DNA of 64,000 nucleotides from Flavobacteriales bacterium (GCA_965661855.1 CBFIFL010000001.1:20182-84181); one strand, 5' to 3'. Positions 10,600-16,108 are shown, counted from the first letter of the stretch. The notes: a model not told the origin generated them from the letters alone. Numbers and translations are program-made.

Positions 10600-11607
10600 T
10601 TATATAGTATGATTCATATGGCGAATCAATTCGATTAATTTTGCCGAGTAACCCCATTCGTTGTCATACCAGGAAATCACTTTAAGAAAGTTGTCAGACA
10701 TGGAAATTGCTGATGAAGCATCAAATATGGAAGTTCTGGAGTCACCAAGAAAGTCACTCGATACAACAGGTTTATCGGTGTAACCTAAAATTCCTCTCAT
10801 ACTCCCTTCCGATGCCTGTTTCATCTTAGATTTAACATCATTTAAAGATGCAGGCGATTTCAATTTTACGGTTAAGTCTACTACAGAAACATTTGGGGTA
10901 GGAACACGGAAAGCCATTCCCGTTAATTTTTCATTTAATTCAGGTATAACTTTTCCAAGTGCCTTAGCAGCACCGGTAGATGCTGGAATGATGTTTTGCA
11001 TGGAGCCGCGTCCTAATCTCCAGTCTTTTTTAGAGATGCCATCAACTGTGTTCTGTGTAGCAGTTACAGCGTGAACCGTTGTCATGAGACCTTCTTCAAT
11101 TCCAAAGTGATCGTTCAATACTTTAGCAATCGGTGCAAGACAATTCGTTGTGCAGGAAGCATTAGAAACTATGTCCATATCAGCTGAGTATTTATGATTG
11201 TTCACGCCCATAACGAACATTGGTGTGTCATCCTTTGATGGAGCAGAAAGAACTACTTTATTCGCGCCTGCAGATAGATGGCCTTTTGCTAGTTCTTTTG
11301 TTAAAAATAAGCCAGTAGCCTCAACAACATAATTGACATTAACATCTCCCCAATTTAATAAAGACGGATCTTTTTCAGCTGTAATACGAATACGATTGTC
11401 ATCTACTAATAGATAATCTCCATCAATTTGAACAGAGTAATCAAATCTCCCATGACTTGAATCATATTCTAGTAAGTAAGCAAGATAATCTATTGGCACT
11501 AAATCATTGATTGCAACCACCTCCATGTCTTCACTTTTAGCCGCTATTCGAAATACTAATTGACCAATACGCCCAAAACCGTTGATTCCTATTTTTACTT
11601 TATCCAT
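10600..11607 (-). CDS. gap: Glyceraldehyde-3-phosphate dehydrogenase (type I)
   Basis: [13 protein letters not shown]-terminus and catalytic [12 protein letters not shown] motif. Length 335 aa. Confidence 0.9.
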
Positions 11608-11614
11608 AATAAAT

Positions 11615-12187
11615 TTATTTATTCAACAACCAACTACCTCCAACTGAAATTACATTATCTAGTTCAAGAAGATCCTGATAATTTGATTCGTTGATTCCGC
11701 CAGTTGGACAAAATTTAACATTTTTGAAAATTCCTCCGTAAGTTTTTAATGCCTTTTCACCGCCAAATAAATTAGCAGGAAAAAACTTAAAAAACTCCCA
11801 TCCTAAATTAATTCCACGAATAATTTCACTTGGAGTCGATACTCCTGGTAAAAAAGGGATCCCAGAAGAATTAAATTCTTGAATCATGGAGTCATTAAAG
11901 CCTGGACTTACCATGAAGTCAACTTTTAGACTTGCACATTTAAGAATATCATCAGAAGAAACTATAGTTCCAACACCAACATTGAAATTAGAGCCGTATT
12001 TTTCTTTAAAAAGTTTAACAGCATCCCAAGCGATATCATTTCTTAGTGTTATTTCGATGCATTTTATCCCATTTTTGTTTAGAACTTCATAGTATTCGTC
12101 TACCTGAGATAAATTGTGGATGGTTGCCACGGGTATCAGTGGGTTTGCATTCAGTATTTTTTCAATATCGTTTTGAGTCATTTCCAT
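11615..12187 (-). CDS. eda: 2-dehydro-3-deoxyphosphogluconate (KDPG) aldolase / 4-hydroxy-2-oxoglutarate aldolase
   Basis: Eda-family layout (IEITLRN, GVGTI, FCPTGGI). Length 190 aa. Lies immediately downstream of edd. Confidence 0.8.
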
Positions 12188-13989: not shown

Positions 13990-14657
13990 GCCTTTGAATA
14001 AAATATATTAATATCGCTTCTTCTTTTCATGACCTCATGAATCGGAAGCTTTTTAGTTTTATCGTTTAGAACCTGCCACTTGTCCATGCCCGAAATGAAA
14101 AGAATAATCGTTTGGGCAGAGCATATCAAGTCCATACCGCAGGTAATTCGATCTTGTGGGTGGTCTGGTGCGTTAGTATTGAAAATTGTTTTCTCTGATG
14201 ATTCATAAGCTGTTTTAGATCCTTCATCATCTGGGAATATAGATGCTGTGTGCCCATCTTTTCCCATGCCAAGTATAACTAAATCGGTGCGTTCGATAAA
14301 CGGGGTGTACTTTTCTCTTACGATTTGTAGGTTCTTGTATTTATCACTTTTATCAAATACCATTCCTGTTATGTTGTTTTTCTTCACCTTTTCATGCGTA
14401 AAGCAGTCTCGAATCAATCGCTCATTACTGAATTCACTCAGAGTATTAACATATCGCTCATCAACCAGTCCAAAATTTATGGAATCGATGAATTCACAAT
14501 TTTTATTCAATAACTTATATATTGGTCCAGGTGTGCTACCTCCCGACAGCAAAACCCTCACAGAATTATGCTTGGCGAGTGACTTTTCCATGGACATTAT
14601 TATGGAATTAACACCATTACTGATTAGATCCTCTTTATGATTGAAAGATTTTGTCAT
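13986..14657 (-). CDS. pgl: 6-phosphogluconolactonase
   Basis: Glucosamine-6-P isomerase/6PGL fold motifs (LLSGGSTP, GMGKDGHTASIFP). 4-nt overlaps with zwf and edd indicate an operon. Confidence 0.8.
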   Translation of the reverse strand: MTKSFNHKEDLISNGVNSIIMSMEKSLAKHNSVRVLLSGGSTPGPIYKLLNKNCEFIDSINFGLVDERYVNTLSEFSNERLIRDCFTHEKVKKNNITGMVFDKSDKYKNLQIVREKYTPFIERTDLVILGMGKDGHTASIFPDDEGSKTAYESSEKTIFNTNAPDHPQDRITCGMDLICSAQTIILFISGMDKWQVLNDKTKKLPIHEVMKRRSDINIFYSKA

Positions 14658-16108
14658 AATTCATTTGTATTCCATTTTACGTTTTCTTCCAATATTTGAT
14701 TACCAGGGCCCCATGAACCGGATTCATATAAGGTAAGAGGAACTTCTTCTTTCCAGTTCTTGGTAATTGACTCTATCCAGTGCCATGCAGCCTCAAGCTC
14801 GTCATGACGCATGAATAAAGTTTGATTCCCTCGAATAACATCCATAATTAGTCGTTCGTATGCATCTGGCATTCGGTTTTTGAATGAGTCAACAAAATCT
14901 AGTTTCAACGAAATAGGCTTAAATCTGTAGCCTCCCGGCCCTGGAACTTTACTTAACTGAACCAATTCAATTCGTTCTTCAGGTTGTAATCGTATAATTA
15001 ACTTATTTCGCAGTGGATATTTCGATTCTGGGAATATATTATGAGGAAGCTCCTTGAAATTGATGATAATATCCGAGTATCTTTTCTTCATCCGTTTTCC
15101 GGTACGCAGATATATAGGAGTGTTTTTCCAACGCCAGTTGTCGATGTTTGTTTTGATTGCAACAAAGGTTTCTGTTTCAGAATCGTAAGCGTCAATATCT
15201 TCTAAGTAAGAATTAAGTTTTTTATTGTCAACTGAACCTCTTGTGTATTGACCACGAACAACATCCTTATTTATTGTTTCTTTTGTGAAAGGACGCAAAG
15301 ACTGAAGTACTTTTAATTTTTCGTTTCTAACCGCATCAGGATTTAAATTTGAAGGAGGCTCCATGGCAATCAGACAGAGTAATTGAAGTAGATGGTTCTG
15401 CACCATATCTAACAATGCTCCGGTATGATTGTAATATCCTGCGCGTTTTTCAACTCCTAAGCTTTCTGCTACGGTAATTTGAATACTTTCAATATTGTCT
15501 GCATTCCAGGCTCTTTCAAAAAGATGATTGGCAAAGCGCAGCACCATTAGGTTCTGAACAGTTTCTTTTCCTAGGTAGTGATCAATTCTGAATATTTGAT
15601 GTTCATCAAAAGCGGTGGATATAATTTTATTTATTTCCTGACTAGATTTCAAGCTATTACCAAGTGGCTTTTCCAATACTACCTTACTTTCCTTTGTGAT
15701 CAAATCCGTTGCTTTCAATGCTTGACATATCTCTGAAAATGCACTTGAGGGAACAGAAAAGTAAAAAATTCGTTGTCTTTCAGGAGTCTTATCTAAATGC
15801 TTTTTAAGAGTTTGATAATGTTTTTGTTCGTTTTTTGCTATATGAACCAGTCTCAAGTTTTTAAAGAATTCATGTGTGTCATCATTTTCGGTTAATGAGA
15901 TGAATTCACTAACTTCTTTGATAAAATCATTTTTATCTAATTTTTCTCTGCACAAACATAGAATTTCAAACATCAAGTTAAGTTGACCTTCCTTAAATCT
16001 ATGAAAAAGAGCTGGGATTATCTTACGTTTAGACAAGTCTCCATTACCTCCGAATATCAAGATGTTGAAGGGTTTGAAGTCTGTTGAATTAACTCGATAT
16101 GATTTCAT
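14654..16108 (-). CDS. zwf: Glucose-6-phosphate 1-dehydrogenase
   Basis: Signature RIDHYLGKE, NAD(P)-binding N-terminus, 484 aa. Confidence 0.9.
   Translation of the reverse strand: MKSYRVNSTDFKPFNILIFGGNGDLSKRKIIPALFHRFKEGQLNLMFEILCLCREKLDKNDFIKEVSEFISLTENDDTHEFFKNLRLVHIAKNEQKHYQTLKKHLDKTPERQRIFYFSVPSSAFSEICQALKATDLITKESKVVLEKPLGNSLKSSQEINKIISTAFDEHQIFRIDHYLGKETVQNLMVLRFANHLFERAWNADNIESIQITVAESLGVEKRAGYYNHTGALLDMVQNHLLQLLCLIAMEPPSNLNPDAVRNEKLKVLQSLRPFTKETINKDVVRGQYTRGSVDNKKLNSYLEDIDAYDSETETFVAIKTNIDNWRWKNTPIYLRTGKRMKKRYSDIIINFKELPHNIFPESKYPLRNKLIIRLQPEERIELVQLSKVPGPGGYRFKPISLKLDFVDSFKNRMPDAYERLIMDVIRGNQTLFMRHDELEAAWHWIESITKNWKEEVPLTLYESGSWGPGNQILEENVKWNTNEL

Follow-up and report, generated by a model that had tools for sequence, protein, structure and literature searches.

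An Entner-Doudoroff operon joined to a beta-1,3-glucan locus in a Fluviicola-like flavobacterium, with a predicted common regulon

Introduction

Flavobacteriales rank among the main consumers of laminarin, the beta-1,3-glucan of algae, in both lakes and oceans, and textbook models for the order route the released glucose to EMP glycolysis. Relative to EMP, the Entner-Doudoroff (ED) pathway yields less ATP and extra NADPH, at a lower protein cost. Among described ED systems, the HexR regulon of Pseudomonas comprises zwf-pgl-eda, edd-glk, and gap-1 under an RpiR/SIS protein whose effector is KDPG, and alphaproteobacteria have a zwf-pgl-edd operon; among described glucan systems, the Bacteroides beta-1,3-glucan PUL contains GH158. 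The model for 'Gramella forsetii' KT0803 passes glucose into "glycolysis" and mentions ED only as a sink for alginate-derived KDPG (PMC4069401). The operator of the Bacteroides regulator BtAraR has been experimentally defined as a 21-bp motif with 4-bp half-sites 7 bp apart and a GTGT...ACAC core (PMC4666351).

Here we describe a window of 64,000 nucleotides from a Flavobacteriales bacterium (GCA_965661855.1, CBFIFL010000001.1:20182-84181), with positions counted from its first letter. The locus carries the same enzymes as the HexR regulon and, as in Pseudomonas, a glucokinase gene (here a proposed one) and a GAPDH gene that are predicted to be co-regulated with the ED genes by one repressor at divergent promoters. 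The regulator, however, is a Nudix-wHTH protein rather than an RpiR/SIS protein, and as compared with the HexR and alphaproteobacterial systems the predicted regulon includes secreted beta-1,3-glucanases, the promoters are of the Bacteroidota type, and Eda is about 25 residues shorter at its C-terminus. The zwf-pgl-edd order itself also appeared in Rhizobiales loci in our comparison of related loci. With the laminarin loci of G. forsetii (PMC4069401) and the Bacteroides GH158 PUL, the locus shares a GH16, GH3, and GH158 set for the conversion of beta-1,3-glucan to glucose; in contrast to those of marine Flavobacteriaceae and Bacteroides, no SusC/SusD pair was detected here and secretion is via T9SS sorting domains. 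Unlike in the G. forsetii model, a full upper ED pathway, Edd included, is joined to the glucan genes physically and by predicted regulation. With BtAraR it has in common a Nudix-like ligand domain and wHTH, a semi-palindromic operator of 21 bp whose 4-bp half-sites are spaced by 7 bp, and (as a prediction) control of a monosaccharide catabolic operon together with glycoside hydrolases for the parent polymer; however, BtAraR governs an arabinose regulon, whereas glucose/ED and beta-1,3-glucan genes are concerned here, and the BtAraR half-site GTGT is TTGT in the clade of this bacterium.

Results

The ED operon

Five closely spaced minus-strand genes occupy positions 10600-16108 in the order zwf-pgl-edd-eda-gap:

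14654..16108, minus strand: zwf, glucose-6-phosphate dehydrogenase, 484 aa, first gene of the operon (TIGR00871 538.7 bits, cutoff 400.6; Pfam G6PD_N and G6PD_C)
13986..14657, minus strand: pgl, 6-phosphogluconolactonase, 223 aa (TIGR01198 123.1 bits, cutoff 124.45, borderline; Pfam Glucosamine_iso 137.6 bits, cutoff 27)
12193..13989, minus strand: edd, 6-phosphogluconate dehydratase, 598 aa (TIGR01196 equivalog 905.9 bits, cutoff 708.25, covering aa 4-596)
11615..12187, minus strand: eda, KDPG aldolase, 190 aa (TIGR01182 179.3 bits, cutoff 156.05)
10600..11607, minus strand: gap, type I phosphorylating GAPDH, 335 aa, last gene of the operon (TIGR01534 435.3 bits, cutoff 367.2)

The zwf/pgl and pgl/edd junctions are each 4-nt ATGA overlaps, and gaps of 5 nt and 7 nt separate edd from eda and eda from gap, respectively. 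The window thus encodes a complete, intact ED operon, in which zwf and pgl provide for the supply of 6-phosphogluconate. Assignment of pgl misses its NCBIfam cutoff by 1.3 bits, which counts against the reading preferred below; nagB models reach at most 34 bits for this protein, and its location between zwf and edd is kept in about 70 loci. Eda, aligned to residues 6-187 of E. coli Eda (1EUA), keeps the equivalents of E45, R49, T73, K133, and F135. It is without some 25 C-terminal residues of the E. coli enzyme, and short forms (185-192 aa) are usual among Flavobacteriales-type loci. The gap gene is a variable member of the operon, present after eda in related loci L001, L006, and L008 and absent from this position in L002-L005. 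No pfkA was found among the ORFs of the window, to which the search extended.

A sequence-only reading of the window had proposed this five-gene operon, and ORFs, overlaps, gaps, and family scores all agree with it. The same reading had named an IlvD-type identity of Edd as the outcome that would overturn it. That identity was rejected: TIGR01196 lies above its cutoff, whereas all IlvD models fall far under theirs (best, 339.7 bits against a cutoff of 644). Models for arabinonate and xylonate dehydratases were likewise far under their cutoffs. The best matches to Edd are Crocinitomicaceae/Fluviicola proteins named phosphogluconate dehydratase (70-98% identity), and judged by these family scores Edd is a genuine 6-phosphogluconate dehydratase equivalog.

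Divergent kinase, GH3, and regulator genes

Transcribed away from zwf are three genes, all placed there by the sequence-only reading as well:

16215..17102, plus strand: ASKHA sugar kinase of the Bacteroidota MurK/1ZXO family, 295 aa, proposed glucokinase (1zxo, E 7e-56; Tannerella MurK, 8oqw, E 8e-45)
17159..19447, plus strand: GH3 beta-glucosidase/exo-beta-1,3-glucosidase with signal peptide, 762 aa (Pfam Glyco_hydro_3, Glyco_hydro_3_C, Fn3-like)
19449..20147, plus strand: Nudix-wHTH regulator, AraR/XylR branch of the NrtR family, 232 aa (Pfam NUDIX, NrtR_WHD, AraR_C)

The kinase has no Pfam match, and its homology to 1ZXO/MurK spans residues 1-276. We propose from context that it is a glucokinase. 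Specificity of MurK for MurNAc involves a small residue at T94 and the S133-P134-L135 segment, and a bulky polar residue is predicted to clash (PMC10465942). At the T94 position the kinase has His, which is bulky and polar, and positions 133-135 are P-A-L, which are small; this argues weakly against MurNAc and says nothing positive on glucose. Two points count against a glucokinase assignment and the reading that includes it: those relatives that have been characterised act on MurNAc or GlcNAc instead of glucose (PMC10465942), and the closest structural homologue, 1ZXO, is uncharacterised. The GH3 protein has a hydrophobic N-terminus, and its best NCBIfam matches are exo-beta-1,3/1,6-glucosidase and BglX, both under their cutoffs.

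The regulator matches BtAraR (5bs6) with an E value of 1.6e-50 and 42% identity. Its Nudix box is degenerate, with NRILTE in the REUxEE segment (KRVLAE in BtAraR) and one glutamate kept. In an alignment to BtAraR, the residues that hydrogen-bond the sugar in AraR (Arg34, Arg86, His131) are retained, as are the DNA-contacting residues Lys179, Asn181, Lys184, and Arg205. At the positions that pack around the ligand, Phe36 is exchanged for Met, Gly48 for Asn, and Phe49 for Leu; Ala stands in place of the intercalating Arg180 and His in place of Lys204. Because the packing residues and Arg180 differ, the effector and details of DNA binding cannot be transferred from AraR, and since the differing residues line the pocket, the effector is probably not L-arabinose. 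A role as an AraR orthologue with an arabinose regulon was also rejected: the locus contains no arabinose catabolic genes of the araMPRDAB type, and the candidate operators flank ED, GH3, GH16, GH158, and SSF genes.

Glucan genes

Beyond the regulator, the locus continues with genes for beta-glucan hydrolysis and a transporter:

20240-21109, plus strand: T9SS-secreted protein (Pfam Por_Secre_tail/T9SS)
21179-22180, plus strand: GH16 endo-beta-glucanase with T9SS sorting domain (Pfam Glyco_hydro_16, Por_Secre_tail)
28022-29350, minus strand: GH158 endo-beta-1,3-glucanase (structures 9oro, E 1.2e-94, and 6pal, E 1.5e-63)
22283..29350, minus strand: GH158 unit, with GH158 followed by four exported proteins of 633 aa, 563 aa, 326 aa (lipoprotein), and 415 aa (CBM9-containing; Pfam CBM9_1); signal peptides read from N-termini
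29607..31259, plus strand: sodium:solute symporter (SSF, SGLT-type), 550 aa, proposed glucose importer (Pfam SSF 229 bits; TIGR00813 397.6 bits)

NCBIfam matches to the GH16 protein are endo-1,3-1,4-beta-glycanase-like and under cutoff, and the 633-aa, 563-aa, and 326-aa exported proteins have no Pfam or NCBIfam match. An orthologue of the symporter, 85% identical, adjoins GH16 and an operator in L002-L004; glucose is the putative substrate of the symporter. No TonB-dependent receptor, Plug, or SusD match was obtained from Pfam or NCBIfam for any ORF in 16215-31634. The locus was therefore not classed as a canonical SusC/SusD PUL, the SusC-like/SusD-like pair not having been found adjacent.

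Candidate operators and promoters

The candidate operator is a 21-bp palindrome, TTATTGTA-N5-TACAATAA. At two or fewer mismatches, five copies of the 21-mer occur in the window against 0.06 expected, a number that none of 100 shuffles reached; exact matches to the core number three (0.15 expected). Four of the five palindromes lie in promoter regions, namely those of zwf/kinase, the T9SS protein/GH16, GH158, and the SSF symporter:

16141..16161, no strand assigned: operator O1, TTTTTGTAAAAAGTACAATAA, in the 106-bp zwf/kinase divergent intergenic region between two -7 boxes; position conserved in relatives
16128..16135, minus strand: zwf -7 box TATATTTA, Bacteroidota-type (consensus TAnnTTTG), read from the sequence, putative promoter element
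16177..16184, plus strand: -7 box TATATTTG of kinase-GH3-regulator, Bacteroidota-type, likewise read from the sequence and putative
20198..20218, no strand assigned: operator O2, TTATTGTATTATTAACAATAA, upstream of the T9SS protein and GH16 (21-mer search)
29373..29393, no strand assigned: operator O3, TTATTGTAAAATATACAATAA, a perfect palindrome 22 nt upstream of the GH158 start (21-mer search)
29560..29580, no strand assigned: operator O4, TTATTGTAACATCTACAATTA, 26 nt upstream of the SSF start (21-mer search)

In four aligned relatives the column of the zwf -7 box reads TACATTTG or TATCTTTG, and equivalents of the kinase-side box occur in L001, L003, L005, and L006. Of 25 Flavobacteriales-type loci, 17 have an operator of the same layout ahead of zwf, as against 0.14 expected, when counted with a strict pattern between -110 and -15 from the zwf ATG that has only 26 matches in 447 kb; upstream sequences of L002, L003, and L004 are identical, and with independent loci alone the figure is about 15 of 23. 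The layout (4-bp half-sites 7 bp apart within a 21-bp motif) agrees with that of the BtAraR operator, and in more distant relatives the core is the AraR-type GTGT-N7-ACAC.

Synteny in relatives

The ED operon is divergent from kinase-GH3-regulator in L001-L005, and L006 retains the divergent kinase. In two deeper Flavobacteriales loci, L025 and L067, GH16-GH158-kinase-zwf-pgl-edd-eda follow one another in that order on one strand, and GH158 or the regulator lies near the operon in L015, L018, L026, and L061. Of the related loci whose flanks are complete, some half lack a beta-glucan hydrolase at a distance of up to 10 kb from edd. The glucan link therefore recurs without being universal, and at its core the regulon may serve no more than glucose catabolism. 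Two further proposals of the sequence-only reading are borne out by these comparisons: a candidate operator shared by the ED operon and the divergent genes, which takes the form of a statistically supported 21-bp palindrome, and the joining of the ED operon to the glucan locus, evident in the shared palindromes, the divergent arrangement recurring in relatives, and the one-strand series of L025 and L067.

Discussion

These data make it likely that the ED operon and a non-SusC/D beta-1,3-glucan locus form one regulon under a single sugar-responsive repressor, one that links glucan hydrolysis, the uptake and phosphorylation of glucose, and ED. In the proposed scheme, GH158 and the T9SS-secreted GH16 would cut beta-1,3-glucan outside the cell, and the exported GH3 would release glucose, which would be imported by the SGLT-type Na+ symporter and phosphorylated by the MurK-family ASKHA kinase. 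Glucose-6-phosphate would be converted to pyruvate and glyceraldehyde-3-phosphate by Zwf, Pgl, Edd, and Eda, with glyceraldehyde-3-phosphate passing onward through the operon's own GAPDH. Transcription of the zwf operon would start from the Bacteroidota-type promoter in the 106-bp divergent intergenic region; the Nudix-wHTH repressor encoded in the divergent operon is predicted to bind the 21-bp palindromes as a dimer, between or over promoter elements of all four transcription units, and to come off when it binds a small sugar as effector, the likeliest candidates being glucose and its close derivatives. Expression would then depend on sugar, and we infer flux through ED as the main route for glucan-derived glucose, in keeping with the sequence-only reading, which had suggested ED in place of or alongside EMP for this sugar.

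How far the glucan genes define this regulon is open to a different weighting. The operon could serve general housekeeping catabolism of glucose and hexoses, with zwf-pgl-edd-eda as the core target of a glucose-catabolism repressor and beta-glucan hydrolases as lineage-specific recruits. The retention of the zwf-upstream operator in most relatives would fit this, as would the presence of hydrolases nearby in only about half of them and the differing gap and GH content; against it, four operators in the window tie GH16, GH158, GH3, and SSF to the ED operon, and L025 and L067 place hydrolases and ED genes in series. We consider this account rather unlikely, though it is largely compatible with a joint ED and glucan regulon and differs from it in emphasis only. 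Much less probable is a classical ADP-ribose-responsive NrtR, with the palindromes reflecting NAD-linked rather than sugar-linked control. The regulator does have Pfam NrtR_WHD and NUDIX domains, and its top NCBIfam match is the ADP-ribose-responsive repressor model; however, that match, at 139 bits, falls far short of the cutoff of 400, BtAraR outscores Shewanella NrtR (3gz5) by 175 bits to 80, the operator core is AraR-type, and NAD-metabolism genes are absent from the regulon.

Origin of the operon bears on how well it is integrated into its host. T9SS C-terminal sorting domains, TAnnTTTG -7 boxes, and the best matches of Edd all support the Bacteroidota assignment made by the sequence-only reading; the host is a freshwater-type, Fluviicola-like flavobacterium of the Crocinitomicaceae (Flavobacteriales). 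A recent horizontal acquisition from Proteobacteria, perhaps only loosely integrated into host metabolism, might be suspected from the identical zwf-pgl-edd order in dozens of alphaproteobacterial loci and the 55-59% identity of Edd to alphaproteobacterial Edd, but it is scarcely credible here. In GC content (0.355-0.374) the operon cannot be told apart from the remainder of the window, its promoter carries Bacteroidota -7 boxes and an operator of a regulator branch reported only from Bacteroidetes, and rough NJ trees place the Flavobacteriales sequences of Edd, and likewise those of Zwf, in a single clade separate from Proteobacteria. Conservation of zwf-pgl-edd-eda across a monophyletic set of Flavobacteriales loci indicates a lineage trait, not a recent transfer; the genes could have reached the clade's ancestor by an ancient transfer. 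All Bacteroidota-type matches of a species-level scan, itself biased to close relatives, fall within one Flavobacteriales clade, and a patchy distribution of ED in Bacteroidota is only indirectly supported.

A joint ED and glucan regulon also allows a bolder proposal, which we put at somewhat less than even: the regulator may represent a third, hitherto undescribed specificity in the AraR/XylR branch, a repressor responsive to glucose or a beta-glucan product whose core target across Crocinitomicaceae-like Flavobacteriales is the ED operon, with the half-site shifted from GTGT to TTGT inside this clade. ED rather than EMP might then be the main route for beta-1,3-glucan-derived glucose, possibly without PfkA, unlike in model marine Flavobacteriaceae.

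The module is tidy but fairly ordinary, and is already automatically annotated in related public genomes; the result amounts to a solid annotation and a good regulon prediction that should not surprise a specialist. If correct, it would provide a compact, testable regulon (a 232-aa repressor, a 21-bp operator, and four promoters) and an example of Nudix-type sugar sensing outside gut Bacteroides, and models of carbon-use efficiency in Flavobacteriales would change to allow for a lineage in which a single repressor wires a full ED pathway directly to glucanases.

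An Entner-Doudoroff operon of known type

The minus strand between 10600 and 16108 is wholly occupied by five ORFs encoding the Entner-Doudoroff (ED) route and a glyceraldehyde-3-phosphate dehydrogenase (GAPDH), scored here against NCBIfam models:

14654-16108, minus strand: zwf, Zwf, 538.7 bits (cutoff 400.6)
13986-14657, minus strand: pgl, Pgl, 123.1 bits, 1.3 bits under the cutoff
12193-13989, minus strand: edd, Edd, phosphogluconate dehydratase equivalog, 905.9 bits (cutoff 708.25)
11615-12187, minus strand: eda, Eda, 190 aa, 179.3 bits (cutoff 156.05)
10600-11607, minus strand: gap, GAPDH type I, 435.3 bits (cutoff 367.2)

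ATGA overlaps join zwf to pgl and pgl to edd, and spacers of 5 and 7 nt separate edd from eda and eda from gap, respectively; these ORF positions and junctions reproduce exactly the coordinates and spacing proposed in the sequence-only reading. Pgl easily passes the Pfam Glucosamine_iso model (137.6 bits), glucosamine-6-phosphate deaminase models give at most 34 bits, and the slot between zwf and edd is conserved. An IlvD-type dehydratase, the alternative that reading had itself named as fatal to its claim, is ruled out by HMM: Edd clears its equivalog cutoff, whereas among dihydroxy-acid dehydratase models the top score is 339.7 bits (cutoff 644).

Eda aligns with residues 6-187 of the 213 of E. 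coli KDPG aldolase (1EUA) and is without the last ~25 residues, raising the question of a truncated pseudogene. This is ruled out by the intact equivalents of catalytic Glu45, Arg49, Thr73, Lys133, and Phe135, together with a short length typical of the clade: 17 of the 19 Flavobacteriales-type loci encode an Eda of 185-192 aa, as compared with 206-215 aa in most proteobacterial ones. Short forms also occur in two proteobacterial loci (L078 and L063).

The operon and its surroundings share a flat GC content of about 0.35. A repeat scan of 9800-16300 recovered nothing structured except an AT-rich inverted repeat at 10536-10605 (16-nt arms, 94% complementary, 38 nt apart), which overlaps the gap stop codon; this predicted hairpin may be the operon terminator, though not of the classic GC-stem type. 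The terminator scan was uninformative (3 terminator-like sites, 4.2 expected), and an Rfam search of the whole window returned one tRNA only, and neither riboswitch nor leader at the operon. No pfkA, the marker gene of the alternative EMP glycolysis, was found among the ORFs of the 64-kb window.

Distribution and inheritance

The closest Edd matches (70-98% identity) belong to Crocinitomicaceae and Fluviicola, in genomes and MAGs alike; several of these proteins already carry the NCBI or JGI name "phosphogluconate dehydratase." The operon is a further example of a well-known one, automatically annotated in public genomes of its relatives. A literature search on the ED route in Fluviicola, Crocinitomicaceae, or Flavobacteriales found no describing paper; a mussel-symbiont candidate concerned a methanotroph ED pathway. 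T9SS sorting domains and TAnnTTTG -7 boxes fit assignment of the host to Bacteroidota.

Covering one genome per species, a scan recovered ~28 loci of Flavobacteriales type and then proteobacterial ones at 55-59% identity; this sampling is biased towards close relatives and does not measure absence elsewhere in Bacteroidota. The order zwf-pgl-edd is common to both groups of loci. In rough neighbor-joining trees, the Edd sequences of Flavobacteriales group in a single clade apart from Proteobacteria, as do their Zwf sequences; on this topology, the operon is a trait passed on vertically within a clade centred on Crocinitomicaceae. Recent transfer is unlikely, and ancient transfer is possible.

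Three MAG contigs labelled "Sphingomonadales bacterium" or "Chitinophaga" (L016, L010, and L021) have Edd and Zwf nested within the Flavobacteriales/Crocinitomicaceae clade and an operator identical in type to that clade's; they are probably mis-binned or mislabelled.

Divergent genes and the glucan locus

Gene order and family matches bear out the proposal that the ED operon lies divergent to a sugar kinase, a GH3 enzyme, and a regulator, the two transcription units separating across 106 bp. The kinase (ASKHA type, 295 aa) has no Pfam match; it is homologous to Bacteroides 1ZXO (E 7e-56), and also to Tannerella MurK and GlcNAc-type kinases. Characterized relatives act on MurNAc or GlcNAc (PMC10465942). 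At the MurK T94 position, where a bulky polar residue is said to clash with MurNAc (PMC10465942), the kinase has His, and positions 133-135 are small; these residues speak weakly against MurNAc as substrate and offer nothing positive for glucose. In L001, the related locus of the complete genome of Fluviicola sp. (OZ260110.1), the kinase orthologue at 6909-7785 is called as two overlapping genes of 216 and 92 aa, which suggests a frameshift, by sequencing error or in a pseudogene.

The GH3 enzyme carries a signal peptide, and a single base separates its stop codon from the regulator gene. The regulator gene is followed by one for a T9SS-secreted protein and by a GH16 gene whose product has a T9SS tail; the opposite strand encodes a GH158 endo-beta-1,3-glucanase (matching a GH158 structure at E 1e-94), with further exported proteins downstream:

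22283-28089, minus strand: four exported proteins of 633 aa, 563 aa, 326 aa (lipoprotein), and 415 aa (with CBM9)

Pfam and NCBIfam searches returned zero matches for the 633-, 563-, and 326-aa proteins; all four are candidate proteins for glycan binding at the surface or for uptake. The 633-aa ORF as listed overlaps the GH158 ORF by 68 nt, so its start position is uncertain. The locus ends with an SGLT-type sodium symporter (SSF) and a methylglyoxal synthase gene. Given the GH158 endo-beta-1,3-glucanase and no SusC/SusD pair detected at the locus, its gene content identifies it as a beta-1,3-glucan locus rather than a canonical PUL.

Other features of the window

9877-10248, plus strand: gene for ArfB (alternative ribosome-rescue peptidyl-tRNA hydrolase), no frameshifts, two in-frame TAA codons
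31954-32028, minus strand: tRNA-Arg(TCT)
36087-41846, minus strand: cbb3-type cytochrome oxidase cluster (fused CcoN-CcoO, CcoP, FixG-like protein, DsbD_2 protein)

The first TAA in arfB takes the very place of the Gln in the catalytic GGQ motif (SSGPGG-TAA-HVN), and the second lies at ~10060 (RLT-TAA-DNV); with both repaired, the product reaches 110.9 bits against the ArfB equivalog model (cutoff 100). Because the remaining ORFs of the window read normally, TAA is not a reassigned codon, and the gene is probably a young pseudogene. The cbb3 cluster is consistent with a (micro)aerobic lifestyle.

A shared predicted operator

Alignment of the zwf/kinase intergenic region with four relatives revealed a conserved palindrome between outward-facing -7 boxes. 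Its exact core, TTGTA-N5-TACAA, is present in three copies in the window (0.15 expected), each within one or other of the locus's two divergent promoter regions. Allowing up to two mismatches, the window contains five copies of the full 21-mer TTATTGTA-N5-TACAATAA (0.06 expected), a number reached in 0 of 100 shuffles:

16141, unstranded: O1, zwf/kinase
20198, unstranded: O2, upstream of the T9SS protein and GH16
22068: inside GH16, probably a chance match
29373, unstranded: O3, 22 nt before GH158
29560, unstranded: O4, 26 nt before SSF

At up to one mismatch the core motif is not significant by itself (7 matches, 4.87 expected), and the significance claimed belongs to the exact core and the full 21-mer alone. 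Among related loci, 17 of the 25 of Flavobacteriales type carry the strict pattern [GT]TGTA-N5-[GT]ACA[AC] at 15-110 nt before the zwf ATG, equivalent to ~15 of 23 independent loci because L002, L003, and L004 have identical upstream sequence; 0.14 matches were expected in the zwf upstream windows, and only 26 occur in the whole 447 kb. The candidate operator proposed as shared at zwf/kinase is thus upheld as a sequence prediction.

A sigma-70 scan was uninformative (23 promoter-like sites, 22.6 expected). Since the tool lacks Bacteroidota promoters, the -7 boxes were identified by eye and from the alignment.

One further gene is probably co-transcribed with the symporter behind predicted operator O4, as it starts 13 nt past SSF:

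31272-31634, plus strand: mgsA, methylglyoxal synthase (TIGR00160, 148.9 bits)

It may serve as a relief valve against sugar-phosphate overload. In L002-L004, a PGI gene (SIS/bact-PGI_C) stands in place of mgsA.

An AraR-like regulator

The regulator is a 232-aa Nudix-wHTH protein, 42% identical to the Bacteroides thetaiotaomicron arabinose regulator (BtAraR), for which residue roles in arabinose and DNA contact have been described (PMC4666351). In alignment, it keeps the sugar-hydrogen-bonding Arg34, Arg86, and His131, as well as Val92 and Phe129; at residues packing on arabinose C4/C5, it differs (Phe36 to Met, Gly48 to Asn, Phe49 to Leu). DNA contacts Lys179, Asn181, Lys184, and Arg205 are shared, but Ala replaces the intercalating Arg180 and His replaces Lys204. 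Its Nudix box shows the degeneracy seen in AraR, and the ADP-ribose NrtR model of the parent family gives 139 bits against a cutoff of 400. These features place the regulator in the sugar-responsive AraR/XylR branch; because its predicted regulon is without arabinose genes, it is classed as other than an AraR orthologue. Glucose is the simplest guess as effector.

The BtAraR operator core, established by crystallography and EMSA, is GTGT-N7-ACAC inside a 21-bp motif (PMC4666351). The same half-site, GTGT...ACAC (TTAGTGTA-N5-GACACA), appears 15-110 nt upstream of zwf in distant loci (L011, L012, L014-L023), whereas the Fluviicola-like clade (the window, L002-L005, L013, L025, and L030) has TTGT...ACAA in that interval. 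This difference between subclades may reflect regulator-operator co-evolution.

Proposed regulation and significance

In the proposed mechanism, a repressor dimer would sit on O1 between the two -7 boxes, at the expected -33 elements of both divergent promoters, and its occupancy would shut the ED and kinase-GH3-regulator operons, making the regulator autoregulated. O2, O3, and O4 would impose like control on the hydrolase and transporter units. Glucose freed by basal glucanase activity would enter through the symporter; on binding the regulator, it would de-repress the whole polymer-to-pyruvate route. The kinase would make glucose-6-phosphate, which Zwf, Pgl, Edd, and Eda would convert to pyruvate and glyceraldehyde-3-phosphate, the latter taken onward by the operon-encoded GAPDH. 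Beyond operator presence and conservation, we infer these steps.

In Pseudomonas, the HexR regulon places ED genes, glucokinase, and gap-1 under one repressor; the system here is alike in function, but its regulator belongs to an unrelated family. In the laminarin model for G. forsetii, the destination of glucose is "glycolysis," with ED brought in for alginate-derived KDPG alone (PMC4069401). In contrast, the window has Edd and the upper pathway joined to glucan genes. The physical linkage observed in the sequence-only reading is confirmed, and its interpretation, that glucan-derived glucose is channelled through ED, is supported as far as sequence reaches.

Of the related loci with complete flanks, roughly half showed no beta-glucan hydrolase near edd, which suggests that the conserved regulon core may be glucose catabolism, with glucanases as clade-specific additions. 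The added value of these data is a well-supported regulon prediction, in which an AraR-like regulator would have a new target pathway.
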